A stretch of 64,000 nucleotides of DNA from Candidatus Latescibacterota bacterium (lineage in GTDB: Bacteria > Latescibacterota > UBA2968), in NCBI GenBank assembly GCA_965205975.1, contig OZ242195.1, positions 2,144,001 through 2,208,000 on the forward strand, in the 5' to 3' direction. The notes below the pieces were generated by a model. It worked only from the letters and a program-made list of their open reading frames with translations. It had not been told where the DNA came from and ran no database searches. A program made the position numbers and the translations under genes. Within the stretch, counting starts at the first letter, position 1, and each line of letters opens with the position of its first letter. Below, in pieces: positions 11,458-42,056 of this stretch.

Positions 11458-11507
11458 GTTTCATTTTAGCCGCTAACTGTGACCGCTTGTTTTCGCTAAA
11501 ATTTTTG

Positions 11508-12671
11508 TCAGTTGATTTTCCCAGCCTGAAATTGCTCGAATAAAACTTCCTCTAAGCGACATTTTAAGGTTCTGGGTTTGAGAAATAGCTGTTTCTCTTC
11601 TTCGGGTGGACAAACATCCACGGGTACTGCATGTGCAAGCCGCGTGAATTTGTACTGCACGCCATCAAGTTGAAATTCGCGATTCTCAAGCTGGGCATAT
11701 AATGTGAGCAAAGCAGGCCAATCGCGATAATTTTCTCCGTAAATGTCAACCAAAAAAGGGTACTTGATATCCCGTTCCAGCTTCAAATGCCAGTTGAATC
11801 CCCACGCGGGATTTTGGAGTAACACACCCCATATTTCTTCCCGTTCAGAATACTGAAAGTACGTGTTTGTGTGCCAGATAAGGCCAAGCCAGCACATGCC
11901 AGCCCCGCGGGCATTGATATCCACACCTCCAGCCATCACCTTCCATTCTGGCCTTTGCTTTGCATTTTGGAGAAACAATTCAGACGCAAATGCATGGGTA
12001 TGCGGAAACCAGCAAAACCCCGATAAGTCTGCATCCGTCCCAATAAATCCGCCCTTATACGAATCTGAGAGCCAGCGAACGTGCGTACCTGTCCTGAGCC
12101 GCGTAAAGTTGATCCCCGTGTGAATAAAATCTCTAAAATTTGATTCTGTAAGATATGCATCTGTCCAGTCGGATACTCTGCCATCAGTGCGAAAGAACGT
12201 GCAACCTTCAACGGTCGTCCTGGAAAAGTCTGCGCCCATCATCTGGGCATGATCGAAGGTACAGTCCAGAAATTTGGCTCCTCGAAAAATCGCTCTGGTG
12301 AGATTGGCCCTGCTAAAATTACAACGAGTGAAAACCGATTGTGAATGATCTGATAACGATAGATTGAGACCTGAATAATCCTGGTCTGTGTGCTCACAAT
12401 TTTTTCCCTTTTTCAAGACCTCAGCGGCAAGACCATTCGCATTCAAAAGGTAATCTATCGATATCTTACTCTTTGTCTCTTTTTTGATAAATTCAGCTAA
12501 CTTCAACGCTGTACGACGTTGAAGTCGCGCATTTCCCTGAATTGCGCGATGCACCGTTGATTGTGGGACACCTGAACAGCTTGCAATATACTCCAGTGTA
12601 AGACAATCATCCTGCTCGCGTAGCCAACGCAGTTCACGCGATATTCTCTGGCTTAAACTTTCCTGATACAC
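11508..12671 (-). CDS. XRE-like HTH fused to pentapeptide repeats
   Basis: N-terminal LTLEYIASCSGVPQSTVHRAIQG HTH, then CNFSRANLTRAIFRGAKFLDCTFDHAQMMGADFS repeats. Confidence 0.75.
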   Translation of the reverse strand: MYQESLSQRISRELRWLREQDDCLTLEYIASCSGVPQSTVHRAIQGNARLQRRTALKLAEFIKKETKSKISIDYLLNANGLAAEVLKKGKNCEHTDQDYSGLNLSLSDHSQSVFTRCNFSRANLTRAIFRGAKFLDCTFDHAQMMGADFSRTTVEGCTFFRTDGRVSDWTDAYLTESNFRDFIHTGINFTRLRTGTHVRWLSDSYKGGFIGTDADLSGFCWFPHTHAFASELFLQNAKQRPEWKVMAGGVDINARGAGMCWLGLIWHTNTYFQYSEREEIWGVLLQNPAWGFNWHLKLERDIKYPFLVDIYGENYRDWPALLTLYAQLENREFQLDGVQYKFTRLAHAVPVDVCPPEEEKQLFLKPRTLKCRLEEVLFEQFQAGKIN

Positions 12672-12803
12672 TCCTTTACCCTCCTCAAAATGGAAAAAAA
12701 TGGAATGGAAATAACTTGCTTATTCGATGGCTTAAATTACATTCCGAAGCAAAATTTCGCCACTATTTTTTATATATCTCTCTATTCAATATCATCTATG
12801 CTC

Positions 12804-38787: not shown

Positions 38788-41700
38788 TGACATTTACCGA
38801 TAAATTACAAAAGCGCCCCATAGCGGTCGCCATGTTTACGATTGCGGTCATTTCAATTGGCATGATTGCTGTTTTGCAATTGCCTATTGAATTGTTGCCC
38901 GCTCTGGAATATCCCCGGATGAGTCTTTCTGCGTCCTGGAAAGGGGCTTCACCGGAATCGATAGAGTCACAATTAACAACGCCTCTTGAAGCGATCGCTG
39001 TCAGCATCCCCGGCGTTAAGAGTGTGAGTTCCAGTTCTGGTTTTGGATATGCACAGTTGACAATAGAGCTGTTGAGAACAGCCAACCCGACATTCGTACG
39101 TCTGGAGTTAAAAGACAAATTGGCGCGTTTCTATGAGCAACTTCCCGAAGAGATTAAACCTCCTAAAATTCGACCTTATATTCCCCAGGAATTTCGCGAT
39201 AAAATTGGTTTTATGCGTCTGAGAATAACAGGATCCAAAAGCCTTGATCAACTTCGCAAAATTTCAGAAGAAGTTTTAAGGCCTGGACTTATTGGTATGG
39301 ATGGAGTTGGTGAAATTAGCATCGCTGGAGGGGCACAGAAAGTCTTGCGGATTCAGGTTTCGCGAGCACTGATGCATTCTCTGGACCTGGATCTCCAGGA
39401 TATTTATCGACAAATTTCTGCGTTTAACAAAAAAATTTATCTCGGGAAAATATCCAATAATGACCAGACATTCTGGGTCAAATTGGAATCTTTGGATACA
39501 CACCCTGTTTCCGCGCTTTCCAAATTGCCAATTTCAGCAGATGATCTGACTGTTTTGCTCGGTGATATAGCGACCATAAAATACGATTATGACGATCCCG
39601 AAACGTTCTTTCGAATCAATGGGCGCGACTTTGTCGTCATGGAAATCACGCGCGAACCGGGATCTAATATCCTGGCCCTTGCAGACGATATTCACAAAAA
39701 ATTGGAGAATTTCAAAAAAGAAAGTGCTTTACCGCCTGATGTCAAAATCGATGTCATTCAAGACAGAAGTCAGGACCTAAAAGAAGATATTTCAGTTTTA
39801 CTTAAAAGTGTGGTTTTTTCCGCCGGGTGTCTGTTCTTGATTTTGCTTGTTGCATTTCGGTCCATGGCAGCCGTTATCATTGTATTTGTTTCTTTAATAT
39901 TTTCTCTATGTTTGACGTTTATTGTGATGTTCTTTTGCAAAATCAGTGTGAACAGCGTGACGTTGATAGGGCTTGGCATTGCATTGGGCATCATGGCAGA
40001 CAACGCCATTGTGGTTATTGATCGGTTGCAAAAAGACCACGCGACTCGCAAAACTGGTGAATTAGAAGAGCGTGGTATTCAAAGTGTTAGAATGCCCATA
40101 TTCGCATCTACGCTTACGACACTTGGCGCGTTTTTACCTCTGGTCATTTTATCTGCTCAAACAAAGCTTTATCTGATACCCTTTGCCATTGTCGTATCAA
40201 GTGCTCTTGTGGCCTCGACTTTGTCTGCTTTTACACTGGTTTATGTCGCTACACACCACTTTATTTTGCGATTTGAAAAAAATTATCCGCAAGAAGTTAT
40301 TTCTGATGAGACAGAATCCGAAAAACGAGATGGGTGGCGGGCTACATATTGGTGGCTATTGAATAAAACGATTCGCTACCGACGCTTTGCTATAATTGCG
40401 ATGGTGTGGTTATTTGGAATACCATTGTGGCTTTTGCCAGATAATATGGCGTCGAATATTCAAAGCAAAGAGCGTGCGAGGGAGTTATCTACCACACGGA
40501 TGATTAAATCGCAGTTTGCTGAATTATACGATGCGATCTTTGCAAGTGAGGCATACTTGAATGCAAGACCGTATATCGACAAGGTATTGGGAGGAAGCCA
40601 TTATTTATTTTATCGCCATGTTCCAATTGTTGGTTCCGTGGGGGGGCGTGTAAGATTAGAAGATAGCTATGTAACTGTCGATATTAAAATGCCTCGTTAT
40701 ACAGAGGTCAAATACCTTTTACAAGTCGTGTCGGCTTTTGAAACCCATTTGGACAAATTATCTTCAGATATTTATTATGAAACGCGGGTTGCGAATAATT
40801 ACGAAGCCCTTTTGAAGGTTAAAATGGCGCGCAGGCAGGATCCAGATGATTTATTGATTGAGCTACAACAGGTATTTGAGCAGGTGGCTGTTTCGCTTGG
40901 CGGCATAGAATGTTCAGTTCAAGGGTATGGCCCGGGATTTCGGAATCTGAGAGGGGCTGATATCTCAAAACTTGTCACTTCTGTGAGTGGTTATAATTAT
41001 TTGAAAGTAAAAGAAATAGCGCAAGAATTAGCTGTGGAAATCTCTAAACACAGACGTTTTTCTAATATTTCAATAGATCAAGCATCATTTGGCAGAAAAC
41101 CTGCATGGAATGTTGTCGCAATACCAGATAGAGAGCAATTGTGGAAAGCGCGTGAAGACGTTGGTACTATGTTCAGCCGTATTTCCAGTTTAACCTTATC
41201 GGACGGGATTTATCGGTCTGCTATAGGGGGACAAAAGAGGGGCATTCCAGTATATATAGATTATCTCTCAGAAGATCGCGTCCATACGATTTCTGACCTG
41301 AACAAACAAACACAGGCGACAGAAAGGGTATTAGTAGAAGATATTGCACAAATCGAAAAAAGCCCCACACTACCTGTTATTAATAGAAAAAATCAAGCCT
41401 ACTCGCGTTTGGTGACCAGTGACTACGCAGGGCTGCGCCGCTATGGCGGTCGAATTATCTGGGAGGTACAAGACGCAATGATTTTGCCTCTGGGATATGG
41501 TTTTAACAGGGGAGGATTTGGTTTCTTTGATGATGAAGGGACATTGTGGGGCGCCGTTCTTCTGAGTGCTATTCTCATTTATATGATTTTGTCCGCACTA
41601 TATGAATCATTTCGACAACCTTTTATTATTCTCTGGACTGTGCCCATGGCTTTTATTGGGCTTTTTCTTGTGTTTTTCATTTCTGACGGCGTATTTACAC

Positions 41701-42056
41701 AGGGTGGGTATTTTGCGATGGTGTTCTTGATCGGGATTTCTGTTAATAACGCAATCATCTTGCTCTATCAGCTACAAAAAAGAGCAGCGAAGAATCAAGC
41801 CCCTCTTCTCCAGTCGGCAATATTCGAGGTGTGTCTGAGTCGGCTTCGCCCCATTCTGGTCACTGGCGCGACTTCTATAGGCGGGTTATTGCCCTTCTTA
41901 ATCTGGTTTCCAAACGGCACACTCTGGCACGCTTTTGCCCTGGGTACTGTCGGTGGACTCTGTTTTTCCTCTGTTGGCGTATTATTGATACTCCCCGCGC
42001 TTTTTTTTAGGAAAACCCATTTTCAACGCTCTCGCCCCGATACAAACAAATCATAA
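38787..42056 (+). CDS. AcrB-family RND permease 2 (divergent)
   Basis: KRPIA, ADNAIVV, RLRPILVT; coupled to permease 1 by TGATG. Confidence 0.9.
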   Translation: MTFTDKLQKRPIAVAMFTIAVISIGMIAVLQLPIELLPALEYPRMSLSASWKGASPESIESQLTTPLEAIAVSIPGVKSVSSSSGFGYAQLTIELLRTANPTFVRLELKDKLARFYEQLPEEIKPPKIRPYIPQEFRDKIGFMRLRITGSKSLDQLRKISEEVLRPGLIGMDGVGEISIAGGAQKVLRIQVSRALMHSLDLDLQDIYRQISAFNKKIYLGKISNNDQTFWVKLESLDTHPVSALSKLPISADDLTVLLGDIATIKYDYDDPETFFRINGRDFVVMEITREPGSNILALADDIHKKLENFKKESALPPDVKIDVIQDRSQDLKEDISVLLKSVVFSAGCLFLILLVAFRSMAAVIIVFVSLIFSLCLTFIVMFFCKISVNSVTLIGLGIALGIMADNAIVVIDRLQKDHATRKTGELEERGIQSVRMPIFASTLTTLGAFLPLVILSAQTKLYLIPFAIVVSSALVASTLSAFTLVYVATHHFILRFEKNYPQEVISDETESEKRDGWRATYWWLLNKTIRYRRFAIIAMVWLFGIPLWLLPDNMASNIQSKERARELSTTRMIKSQFAELYDAIFASEAYLNARPYIDKVLGGSHYLFYRHVPIVGSVGGRVRLEDSYVTVDIKMPRYTEVKYLLQVVSAFETHLDKLSSDIYYETRVANNYEALLKVKMARRQDPDDLLIELQQVFEQVAVSLGGIECSVQGYGPGFRNLRGADISKLVTSVSGYNYLKVKEIAQELAVEISKHRRFSNISIDQASFGRKPAWNVVAIPDREQLWKAREDVGTMFSRISSLTLSDGIYRSAIGGQKRGIPVYIDYLSEDRVHTISDLNKQTQATERVLVEDIAQIEKSPTLPVINRKNQAYSRLVTSDYAGLRRYGGRIIWEVQDAMILPLGYGFNRGGFGFFDDEGTLWGAVLLSAILIYMILSALYESFRQPFIILWTVPMAFIGLFLVFFISDGVFTQGGYFAMVFLIGISVNNAIILLYQLQKRAAKNQAPLLQSAIFEVCLSRLRPILVTGATSIGGLLPFLIWFPNGTLWHAFALGTVGGLCFSSVGVLLILPALFFRKTHFQRSRPDTNKS

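Follow-up and report, generated by a model that had tools for sequence, protein, structure and literature searches.

A candidate leader-peptide system without a radical SAM enzyme, encoded beside propeller lipoproteins in a Latescibacterota genome

The 64,000-nucleotide stretch of DNA considered here (Candidatus Latescibacterota bacterium, assembly GCA_965205975.1, contig OZ242195.1, positions 2,144,001 to 2,208,000), hereafter called the window, contains a block of genes at 11.5-42 kb that lie nearly all in one direction and encode 23 proteins, as judged by open reading frame (ORF) calls and by Pfam and NCBIfam searches (Table 1). Its products include two small precursor peptides (P1 and P2), a subtilase joined to a DUF1611-like domain, an acyl carrier protein (ACP), three glycosyltransferases (GTs), a ligase-like protein, propeller lipoproteins, candidate folding and export proteins and an AraC-family regulator. 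A preliminary description of this DNA had proposed that the block forms a RiPP-like system, RiPPs being peptides that are synthesized ribosomally and modified after translation. Its inventory of genes is borne out by the ORF, Pfam and NCBIfam results, apart from corrections to P1, to the second propeller gene and to the sulfotransferase that are explained below. The same is true of its statement that radical S-adenosylmethionine (rSAM), YcaO and Lan enzymes are absent, in that none of the 23 island proteins matches these families in Pfam at E ≤ 0.01.

The block is conspicuous in its base composition, with a GC content of 0.39-0.45 compared with ~0.51-0.53 in the flanks. A composition plot had been suggested in the preliminary description, and we find that, when the 5.56-Mb genome is divided into 1107 overlapping 29-kb windows, the island has the lowest value of all, 0.434 (mean 0.508, standard deviation 0.016), and is therefore set apart beyond chance. 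Another markedly low-GC stretch, with values of 0.443-0.463 in 29-kb windows, is located at G000:C1 ~2,475,000-2,490,000. No Rfam family was matched at E ≤ 0.1 across positions 11000-43000 of the window.

Central to the island is the gene for the subtilase fusion, whose N-terminal half belongs to peptidase family S8 and whose C-terminal half is a P-loop domain. The best Protein Data Bank (PDB) matches of the S8 half are to subtilisin BPN', and Asp9 of the fusion aligns with mature subtilisin residue ~32. Because this alignment begins at mature residue 25, and the protein starts only eight residues before the catalytic Asp, the fusion has neither a signal peptide nor a propeptide. The leaderless S8-DUF1611 fusion of the preliminary description is upheld by these observations and by Pfam, and the S8 half is predicted to act as a cytoplasmic protease. 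At least 52 of 55 full-length homologues (at least 95%) retain the triad D9/H48/S192 and the P-loop motif GTSSQQGKFT, with Lys415 present in 52 of the 55. When compared with NCBIfam, the S8 half scores best among curated models with that of QhpE (152.1 bits, cut-off 165), and residues 252-616 reach 128 bits with TIGR04066 (cut-off 200), which places this half clearly in relation to, but outside, the curated family. Sequence comparison of the DUF1611-like half with the PDB gave 0 matches at E ≤ 1. DgcN, which belongs to DUF1611, carries the name of an N-acetyltransferase in NCBIfam, and the papers listed for DgcN are unrelated ones only. Among 1.84 billion proteins, the P-loop half used alone matches 1374 cluster representatives at E 1e-3, 963 at 1e-10 and 457 at 1e-30. 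The fused form dominates, as shown by a length of 560 amino acids (aa) or more in 125 of the best 150 relatives.

A search with the fusion protein, restricted to one genome per species, led to 72 related loci, each fetched with ±10 kb of DNA and designated here by L numbers. ORFs in these loci were taken by a simple longest-ORF rule, and counts of small or overlapping genes are approximate. Most loci are from Latescibacterota metagenome-assembled genomes (MAGs), with more than one locus in several genomes, and a few carry the titles Gemmatimonadota, Bacteroidetes, Kryptoniota, Erysipelotrichaceae or Clostridia. Eleven loci (L064-L074) were matched by the S8 part only, and in L060 (Kryptoniota) and L069 (Clostridia, at a contig end) the match extended little beyond S8. 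Counts were made on the 57 loci that have an S8-family gene of at least 560 aa, although five of these (L060, L071-L074) are S8-only relatives and several of the partner-less ones are short contigs. An ABC (ATP-binding cassette) exporter gene is present in 44 of the 57, an ACP gene in 43, a propeller of some kind in 19 and an rSAM gene in 4 (5 in all 72 loci), and the ACP is taken as the most constant neighbour of the fusion. The family of the 354-aa ligase-like protein occurs in 21 loci and a BtrH_N/DUF4872 family in 14, never both, such that one or the other is found in 35. In keeping with the co-occurrence in other genomes on which the preliminary proposal had been staked, the core recurs in 72 loci.

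Several sub-architectures accompany this core: CAAX protease/TPR/GNAT; AhpC/Yip1/GT28/MauE/MacB; propeller/redoxin/rhodanese/BtrH/RND; propeller/SBP (substrate-binding protein)/histidine kinase; and that of the window itself. The last is shared by L003-L005, in which the fusion protein is 93% identical and gene order is kept. The host genome carries three fusion loci, of which the second is of the CAAX/GNAT type and the third includes an rSAM gene, UDP-glucose dehydrogenase, DUF354 and another DUF5128 propeller. The third fusion gene (G000:C1:3079633-3081534, L075) is read with one in-frame TGA by the genome search but as an uninterrupted 633-aa frame by the ORF caller. Three sequencing runs that carry a small share of the window sequence are labelled as sponge metagenome, and one report describes sponge-associated Latescibacterota as rich in uncharacterised clusters (PMC9426513).

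Clustering of the small intergenic ORFs of all loci revealed that otherwise dissimilar peptides share the N-terminus M-(K/R/Q)-x-x-L-x-K-(K/P)...(V/I/L)-x-A-Y, followed by acidic residues. The intact member in the window, P2, is preceded by a GGAG ribosome-binding site (RBS) 7 nt 5' of its ATG, and its family conforms to the leader consensus MKxxLxKPQ..N(A/S)VLAY, after which come an acidic segment and a hypervariable core with a four-Cys scaffold. Searching 5.8 billion proteins with a profile recovered 33 members of the P2 type, none with a name or a Pfam domain, in which residues M1, K2, L5, K7, P8, V16, L17, A18, Y19 and E22 of the leader region are invariant, the linker is acidic and rich in aromatic residues, and only four Cys and one Gly of the core are near-invariant. 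The alignment of these 33 sequences contains no conserved Trp column, no conserved C-terminus and no GG motif. A role for the S8 domain as a PatG-like macrocyclase acting on a C-terminal follower was considered and dropped, as the C-termini of the 33 precursors are not conserved. NCBIfam assigned P1 and P2 to 0 families at E ≤ 0.01, the CLI_3235-type family TIGR04065 included. An AlphaFold2 (AF2) model of P2 made with the family alignment leaves the leader disordered and folds residues 30-75 into an all-beta domain of six short strands, with predicted local distance difference test (pLDDT) values of 85-90. For this core fold, Foldseek found no PDB match at E ≤ 0.001, and the best VIA-align score was Z 3.0, with the low rows being mostly single propeller blades.

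The leader is linked to the fusion gene by genomic position. A leader hidden Markov model (HMM) built from 21 seeds was run on 102,609 six-frame segments of the genome. Its matches were P2 (1.7e-9), which had served as a seed, P1 (0.028) and, at 3.5e-7, an ORF lying upstream of the second fusion gene by ~1 kb. Because the next match has an E value of 1.6, leader-type ORFs occur only beside fusion genes in the 5.56 Mb. When the P2 protein was used as the query, no second P2-like gene was found elsewhere in the genome, the only other match (E 0.26) having 2 stops. Aligning the DNA upstream of P1 with P2 and five orthologous precursor regions, taken from three related genomes, reveals a deletion of ~230-250 bp in P1 that has removed the upstream block described below, the RBS, the ATG and ~12 of the first leader codons. 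Intact orthologues of the P1 core with a full leader (P0170, P0172 and P0175) are present in the protein database. Of the two paralogous small precursors originally proposed, P2 is intact, whereas P1 is a 5'-truncated remnant with neither ATG nor RBS. Overall, the system combines a ribosomal precursor, a conserved leader, a variable core and adjoining processing enzymes, which are the general features of RiPPs, and its genes co-occur in many genomes with no rSAM gene in cis at this locus. The view of the island as a RiPP-like leader-peptide system is sustained on these grounds.

The Cys-containing precursors are strictly paired with propeller genes. In the window, 76 bp separate P1 from propeller 1, which follows it, and 231 bp separate P2 from propeller 5, likewise downstream. 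Among the related loci, the short leader ORFs with at least three core Cys have a propeller gene within 250 bp in 11 of 11 cases. The other leader ORFs, which are mostly ~130-140 aa long, Cys-poor and found in CAAX-type loci, have one within 500 bp in 0 of 18. All of the propellers have lipoprotein-type N-termini. Their matches are to NHL domains, those of Thin/TRIM71 (E 9e-20 to 1e-17), and to the 'putative exported protein' of PDB entry 4raa (6.6e-5). A predicted complex of propeller 5 (residues 20-403) with the P2 core (residues 20-75) received a score of 0.01, which carries no weight either way. In the rSAM-bearing Latescibacterota loci L030/L031, a Kelch-repeat propeller lies at 12746-13882, between the fusion gene and a BtrH-like gene. 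Propellers of different families recur in the system.

The five propeller lipoproteins of the preliminary description correspond to five DUF5128/NHL genes with lipoboxes, but the second of these is split by an IS3-family insertion sequence (IS). The frame of propeller 2 runs into the element and its last 89 codons lie beyond it, and its repeats D1-D3 match the other propellers. The IS has a GC content of 0.505 inside the low-GC island and a high, multi-copy depth in the sequencing runs. Short contigs in three runs of one study join 22811 to 23989, skipping 1177 bases, with 32 letters on the shorter side; this joint may represent an IS-free allele in the population or a paralogue. Two other contig joints link the repeated ends of propeller genes. 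One (21745/27239, depth 8.9 in one run) skips 5493 bases and the other (29300/27305, two runs) goes back 1996 bases, and they reflect either variation in the copy number of the array or ambiguous assembly at repeats.

Such damage raises the question of whether the island is a decaying, horizontally acquired remnant that yields no product in this strain. The loss of the start and half of the leader of P1 and the splitting of propeller 2 would fit this explanation, as would the position of the island as the lowest-GC region of the genome and the lack of any RNA run among those listed for positions 24400-32400 of the window. However, P2 is intact and retains a strong RBS and the full conserved upstream block, the other 21 genes are open and of normal length, and the fusion keeps all of its catalytic motifs. 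Moreover, the orthologous loci L003-L005 preserve the fusion at 93% identity and in the same order. We therefore consider a dead remnant quite improbable.

The ACP and the three GTs named in the preliminary description are confirmed by Pfam. The true start of the ACP is probably near 12801, its homologues being 88-97 aa long, and the Ser of its G(L/G)NSM motif is kept in the homologues shown (small-ORF cluster 0). Its score with TIGR04069 is 31.9 bits (cut-off 70), and generic ACP models score higher. The GT28_C gene lies between the ACP and ligase-like genes in L018-L020 and adjoins them in L004/L005, and a homologue of the GT2_4 protein is present in L003 (c132).

The ligase-like protein had been labelled 'BtrH-like', and this label holds for its fold. 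An AF2 model of moderate confidence (pLDDT 71.6) comprises a papain-like N-terminal half and a helical C-terminal half. Foldseek relates the model to AziU2-U3 (1.1e-6), CtaG (2.7e-5) and CcbD (2e-3), and VIA-align relates it to CcbD (Z 15.5, 286 residues aligned, root-mean-square deviation 3.7), AziU3 (15.2) and CtaG (14.2), with the next row at 10.1; the bipartite fold is shared over residues ~19-343. The family profile aligns with the BtrH_N family in hhalign at E 3.3e-4 (probability 38%), and a language-model protein atlas places the protein at 0.98 to BtrH_N clusters. The profile gave chance-level matches only when compared with the PDB by sequence. As described for CtaG, BtrH and AsbE (PMC12865890), papain-like ligases of this kind use a Cys-His-Asp triad to form amide bonds from carrier-protein-bound donors, and in the island a carrier is likewise encoded alongside. 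Within the window family, His133 is near-invariant, Asp141 is invariant (motif HExLIxGYD) and Ser35 is near-invariant, and the His and Asp are, by their motif, putative counterparts of residues in the CtaG triad C11/H128/D144. Unlike CtaG and BtrH, the family has no invariant N-terminal Cys in its alignment and no match to Pfam BtrH_N, and it occurs in a ribosomal-peptide locus that has no adenylating enzyme.

The sulfotransferase of the preliminary description exists as a gene, but its family assignment is weak and relies on a marginal Pfam match and on a language-model lead (atlas 0.96 to Sulfotransfer_1/3 clusters). This gene has no blastp match in any locus fetched, including the closest loci L003-L005.

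The genes that the preliminary description listed for folding, export and regulation are also present, namely the CxxC, rhodanese and MauE genes, the peptidase-less ABC exporter, the RND (resistance-nodulation-division) adaptor with two RND permeases, and the AraC regulator, with the thioredoxin (Trx)-like call being weak. Homologues of the Trx-like protein are found in L003-L005, the rhodanese family in 16 loci and the AraC family in 32 related loci. Pfam identifies no C39 peptidase domain in the ABC exporter. The same trio of membrane fusion protein (MFP) and two RND permeases follows the ligase gene in type C loci. At the island edge, the helix-turn-helix (HTH)/pentapeptide-repeat protein has a homologue at the same position in L005 (family c136) and is only a possible member of the system. 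In some loci for peptide antibiotics, proteins with pentapeptide repeats provide immunity.

Table 1. Features of the island, in window coordinates; numbers after family names are E values unless marked otherwise
Position	Strand	Feature	Basis or remark
11508..12671	-	HTH + pentapeptide-repeat protein	Pfam Pentapeptide 1.7e-14, weak HTH; island edge
12690..13058	+	Acyl carrier protein	PP-binding 3.8e-10
13082..14218	+	GT28_C-family glycosyltransferase	Pfam 1.6e-11
14215..15207	+	GT2_4 glycosyltransferase	Pfam 8.4e-19
15195..16259	+	354-aa CtaG/CcbD/AziU3/BtrH-fold ligase-like protein	No Pfam match; fold by AF2 model
16252..17421	+	GT4 glycosyltransferase	Glycos_transf_1 1.1e-27
17453..19306	+	S8 subtilase (residues 1-230) + DUF1611/TIGR04066-like P-loop domain (residues ~250-617)	Peptidase_S8 3.8e-28, DUF1611 1.9e-11
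19326..20189	+	AraC-family regulator	HTH_18 1.4e-22
20146..20352	+	P1, 5'-truncated precursor remnant, core intact	DNA alignment
20398..29304	+	43-nt hairpin/inverted-repeat element, six copies	ACAGGACAA-N17-19-TTGTCCTGT; repeat D10
20428..21684	+	NHL/DUF5128 propeller lipoprotein 1	DUF5128 1.9e-16; lipobox FFSC
21823..22833	+	Propeller lipoprotein 2, N-terminal part	DUF5128 6.8e-14; frame runs into IS3
22803..24079	-	IS3-family insertion sequence (orfB 22803-23651, orfA 23648-24079)	rve 3.2e-26, HTH_Tnp_1 4.2e-8
24042..24311	+	Propeller 2, C-terminal remnant	End ...DAPDNYVIGKYRLVGESARKE as in propellers 3 and 5; repeat D2
24567..25775	+	Propeller lipoprotein 3	DUF5128 2.7e-13; 73% identical to propeller 5
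25934..27169	+	Propeller lipoprotein 4	DUF5128 3.1e-16
27305..27536	+	~230-nt block upstream of every intact precursor of P2 type	Promoter/5' untranslated region candidate
27537..27764	+	P2, precursor of 75 aa, intact; leader 1-19, then acidic linker and Cys-scaffold core	Leader/family alignment
27995..29206	+	Propeller lipoprotein 5	DUF5128 1.2e-14; lipobox AGGC
29552..29664	+	Second copy of the first 113 nt of the block, before the Trx-like gene	Repeat D14, 82% identical to 27305-27417
29668..30417	+	Membrane-anchored thioredoxin-like protein, CSSC motif	Thioredoxin_2 0.013, weak; motif and N-terminal hydrophobic segment read from sequence
30496..31008	+	Rhodanese-domain protein, hydrophobic N-terminus	Rhodanese 6.2e-16
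31008..31496	+	MauE/DoxX membrane protein	MauE 5.8e-24
31551..32291	+	Sulfotransferase-like protein (weak call)	Sulfotransfer_3 0.021
32361..34235	+	ABC exporter (transmembrane and nucleotide-binding domains)	ABC_membrane 8.4e-45 from residue 56, ABC_tran 6.5e-33
34338..35603	+	RND-type periplasmic adaptor (MFP)	TIGR01730 165.5 bits (cut-off 94.9)
35626..42056	+	Two RND permeases (35626-38787 and 38787-42056)	ACR_tran 2.6e-225, 1.2e-125

Two kinds of repeated sequence connect the genes of the island. The ~230-nt block before P2 is highly conserved, with most columns identical among 6 copies in 4 genomes, while the precursor cores that follow it diverge. Its partial second copy stands before the Trx-like gene, and the pair suggests a common promoter or regulator site. 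The precursor and the Trx-rhodanese-MauE-ABC-RND operon have this cis-element in common as a sequence repeat, which is a sign of one regulon. A consensus fold of the block has 5 compensatory pairs out of 60 among the 6 near-identical sequences, amounting to little covariation, and a scan limited to sigma-70-type promoters found no convincing example on the + strand. The second repeat is the 43-nt element, whose copies lie at 20398, 21732, 25867, 27217, 27832 and 29262, one per intergenic gap of the peptide/propeller array. These six matches compare with 0.30 expected, and none of 100 shuffles reached six. The copy at 27222-27258 scores as terminator-like, and the element may serve in termination, in RNA stability as a hairpin, or as an operator.

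The closest relative of this gene set in the databases is the TIGR04065-TIGR04069 system of Firmicutes, which comprises a CLI_3235-type precursor, a TIGR04066 protein, the rSAM maturase TIGR04068, the ACP-related protein TIGR04069, a subtilase and an ABC exporter. The SacP23 cluster of Paenibacillus polymyxa is an example (PMC10731318). The island has in common with this system a TIGR04066-like P-loop protein, a small carrier, an S8 protease, an ABC exporter and Cys-rich small precursors, and the subtilase and exporter of the Firmicutes definition thereby both have counterparts in the island. The similarity to CLI_3235/TIGR04066 loci noted in the preliminary description is real at the level of sequence, even though the TIGR04066 and TIGR04069 scores given above are both below cut-off. 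The differences are that the island has no rSAM gene, that its protease and P-loop domain form one protein instead of two, and that it adds the CtaG-fold protein, three GTs, propeller lipoproteins, the Trx/rhodanese/MauE set and RND pumps. Matches to TIGR04068 in the genome all fall below cut-off, and the nearest is ~600 kb from the window. A fused S8-TIGR04066 gene does, however, stand beside an rSAM gene in L053, L063, L069 and the third locus of the host genome. The preliminary description had called the system new. Its protease-DUF1611/ACP core consists of long-defined database families, and it is the rSAM-less, propeller-bearing form for which we found no description in the literature searched. 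Nor did the papers searched contain a description of the chemistry of the TIGR04066/TIGR04069 system.

A second parallel is the qhp operon, in which QhpE is a cytoplasmic subtilisin-like protease that removes a 28-residue leader from QhpC before ABC export by QhpF (PMC7876137). Both systems have a signal-less cytoplasmic S8 protease, a small Cys-rich peptide and a peptidase-less ABC pump, and the S8 half of the fusion is most like the QhpE model. The island differs in that it has no QhpD rSAM enzyme, QhpG, QhpA or QhpB, in that its cores are hypervariable and multi-copy, and in that its protease carries the additional DUF1611-like domain. The parallel raised in the preliminary description therefore stands for QhpE likeness but fails for membership, as the cores are hypervariable and have no conserved Trp.

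Quinohemoprotein amine dehydrogenase contains QhpC and QhpB and is made with the help of QhpE, QhpF and QhpR, and the small subunit of methylamine dehydrogenase needs MauD and MauE. By analogy, the island peptides could be cofactor-bearing small subunits of periplasmic propeller enzymes. The presence of MauE, AraC, a peptidase-less ABC exporter, acidic Cys/Trp-rich peptides and propellers would be in accord with this idea, as would the near-cut-off QhpE score, and the roles described for QhpE and QhpF offer a precedent (PMC7876137). Nevertheless, a catalytic cofactor site is ill matched by cores whose near-invariant residues are limited to four Cys and one Gly, with no conserved Trp column in the 33 members. 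In addition, there is no QhpD-type rSAM gene in cis, and no flavoprotein monooxygenase, cytochrome c or other haem protein, or MauG-like protein is matched among the 23 island proteins. The AraC regulator reaches 27.7 bits with QhpR (cut-off 250), the propellers are six-bladed NHL/DUF5128 lipoproteins, and the genes for both peptides and propellers exist in multiple, diversifying copies. Given hypervariable cores without a conserved Trp, we judge subunits of a quinoprotein to be very improbable.

Glycocins such as sublancin and glycocin F provide a further comparison, in that one cluster encodes a leader peptide whose product has two nested disulfides, along with an ABC exporter, thiol-disulfide oxidoreductases and a glycosyltransferase. 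Glycocin exporters have a C39 peptidase that cuts a double-Gly leader. In contrast, the island has no C39 domain, uses a separate S8 protease and has no GG motif in its precursors, and glycosylation of its peptides is putative.

The arrangement of peptide and propeller genes has a parallel in Bacteroidota. Among 101 sampled Bacteroidota genomes, PF14055 (NVEALA) was found in one (G032), and none was found in the Bacteroidetes MAG G001. Of the eight PF14055 matches in G032, four have a DUF5128 match on their own strand no more than 700 bp downstream. The ORFs have an N-terminal hydrophobic segment, the motif ...NVEALA.(G/N)E... and a Cys/aromatic-rich tail, and are followed by a lipoprotein propeller. 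At L081 1474-3147 and L082 422-1764, NVEALA proteins are located directly upstream of DUF5128 propellers, with two in tandem in L081. Both systems thus place a small gene upstream of a DUF5128 lipoprotein, and the sequence N-(A/S)-V-L-A-Y-x-(D/E)-E with a Cys core in the island can be set beside N-V-E-A-L-A-x-x-E with a Cys/aromatic tail. However, the window leaders are short, Lys-rich and hydrophilic, whereas those of NVEALA proteins are hydrophobic and signal-like. P1 and P2 do not match PF14055 at E ≤ 10, the host genome contains no match, and 14 control genomes were silent. We therefore regard this as a parallel, drawn from one genome and possibly reflecting a distant relationship, and not as membership. 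Neither NVEALA nor DUF1611 in combination with RiPP was found in the papers searched.

The G032 genome bears on an explanation in which two independent modules merely adjoin each other: a thiotemplated small-molecule pathway (ACP, CtaG-like ligase, DUF1611, GTs and RND) and a module of the NVEALA-DUF5128 kind, whose peptides would need only leader removal and disulfides. Modules of the latter type are present in that genome, in which a search with the window query did not find the TIGR04066-like half, and only 19 of the 57 loci have propellers. Relatives of CtaG, BtrH, AsbE and CcbD, for their part, are known from non-ribosomal pathways according to one account (PMC12865890). Against such independence, the protease is physically fused to the DUF1611-like domain, as in the 125 long proteins among the best 150 relatives, and one leader type runs through sub-architectures both with and without propellers. 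Furthermore, the leader ORFs of the host genome occur only beside fusion genes, the ACP is the most constant neighbour, and neither an adenylating nor an ATP-grasp enzyme is seen among the island proteins by Pfam or NCBIfam. On this evidence, two independent modules are unlikely.

We prefer to interpret the island as a single system, best read as an rSAM-less variant of the database-defined TIGR04066/TIGR04069 system joined to NVEALA-DUF5128-like peptide-propeller modules. With moderate confidence, we propose that it is a leader-peptide system in which the fusion likely recognises the leader and makes the predicted cut after VLAY, and in which the ACP and the CtaG/BtrH-fold protein would add a carrier-borne acyl group. 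The island likely trims and probably decorates its peptides, and would export and fold them. In this scheme, transcription would begin under AraC control from the common upstream block. The fusion would then bind the leader and cut after Tyr19. Val at P4 and Tyr at P1 make a good site for proteases with subtilisin BPN'-type specificity, and the cut is proposed because VLAY fits such a site (P4 Val, P3 Leu, P2 Ala, P1 Tyr). Optional tailoring could follow, with glycosylation by the three GTs, sulfation by the sulfotransferase-like protein and acylation by the ACP/ligase pair, and with the DUF1611-like domain possibly loading or using the carrier. The core of ~55 aa would be exported to the periplasm by the peptidase-less ABC pump, where oxidative folding by the CSSC Trx-like protein, the rhodanese and MauE may produce an all-beta mini-protein with two or three disulfides. 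Finally, the product might be captured by cognate propeller lipoproteins, acting as immunity protein, chaperone or receptor, and/or be expelled by the MFP-RND-RND pump. The functions that the preliminary description suggested for the peptides, as toxin, signal or partner of the propellers, are likewise putative.

A number of observations weigh against this interpretation. One of the two precursors (P1) and one of the five propellers (propeller 2) are broken in this copy, and the locus may accordingly be decaying. All curated scores (TIGR04066, TIGR04069 and QhpE) lie below their cut-offs. Within the DNA examined, which includes some short contigs, a ligase-like gene is not seen in 22 of the 57 loci and an ACP in 14. 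As judged from its alignment, the ligase-like protein may be inactive or may work differently because it lacks the Cys, and the account of CtaG-like enzymes cited above describes them as so far known from non-ribosomal pathways (PMC12865890). No enzyme that obviously loads the ACP is present in the island, where the DUF1611-like domain is, at a guess, the only candidate to load or use the carrier. Pfam likewise reveals no RND outer-membrane factor in the island. Lastly, the G032 genome indicates that peptide-propeller modules may have no need of this core.

A more ambitious proposal can also be formulated, although we regard it as doubtful. The island could be a ribosomal-thiotemplated hybrid in which the fusion cuts after VLAY and, together with the carrier and the Cys-less CtaG-fold ligase, caps the new N-terminus. 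Hypervariable cystine mini-proteins would then pair with cognate NHL propellers as a polymorphic ligand-receptor or toxin-immunity system across FCB-group (Fibrobacterota-Chlorobiota-Bacteroidota) bacteria, which would explain the orphan NVEALA-DUF5128 arrays of Bacteroidota.

This study adds a family of precursors defined by a leader and a cystine scaffold, a strict pairing of peptides with propellers that has a parallel in Bacteroidota, the common cis-elements, and the broken state of P1 and propeller 2. The protease-DUF1611/carrier core is common (457 representatives at E ≤ 1e-30), yet its chemistry is without description in the papers searched. The window offers an unusually complete test case, with an intact precursor whose leader is defined and whose mini-protein core is predicted with confidence. 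Genes that are candidates for tailoring, folding and export are assembled in one operon-like block, in which Cys-scaffold peptides are strictly paired with genes for NHL propeller lipoproteins. Thiotemplated ligases would be linked to ribosomal peptides if the ACP and the CtaG-fold protein do act on the peptide, and a function would be available for the DUF5128 and NVEALA families of Bacteroidota if the propellers do bind the peptides.

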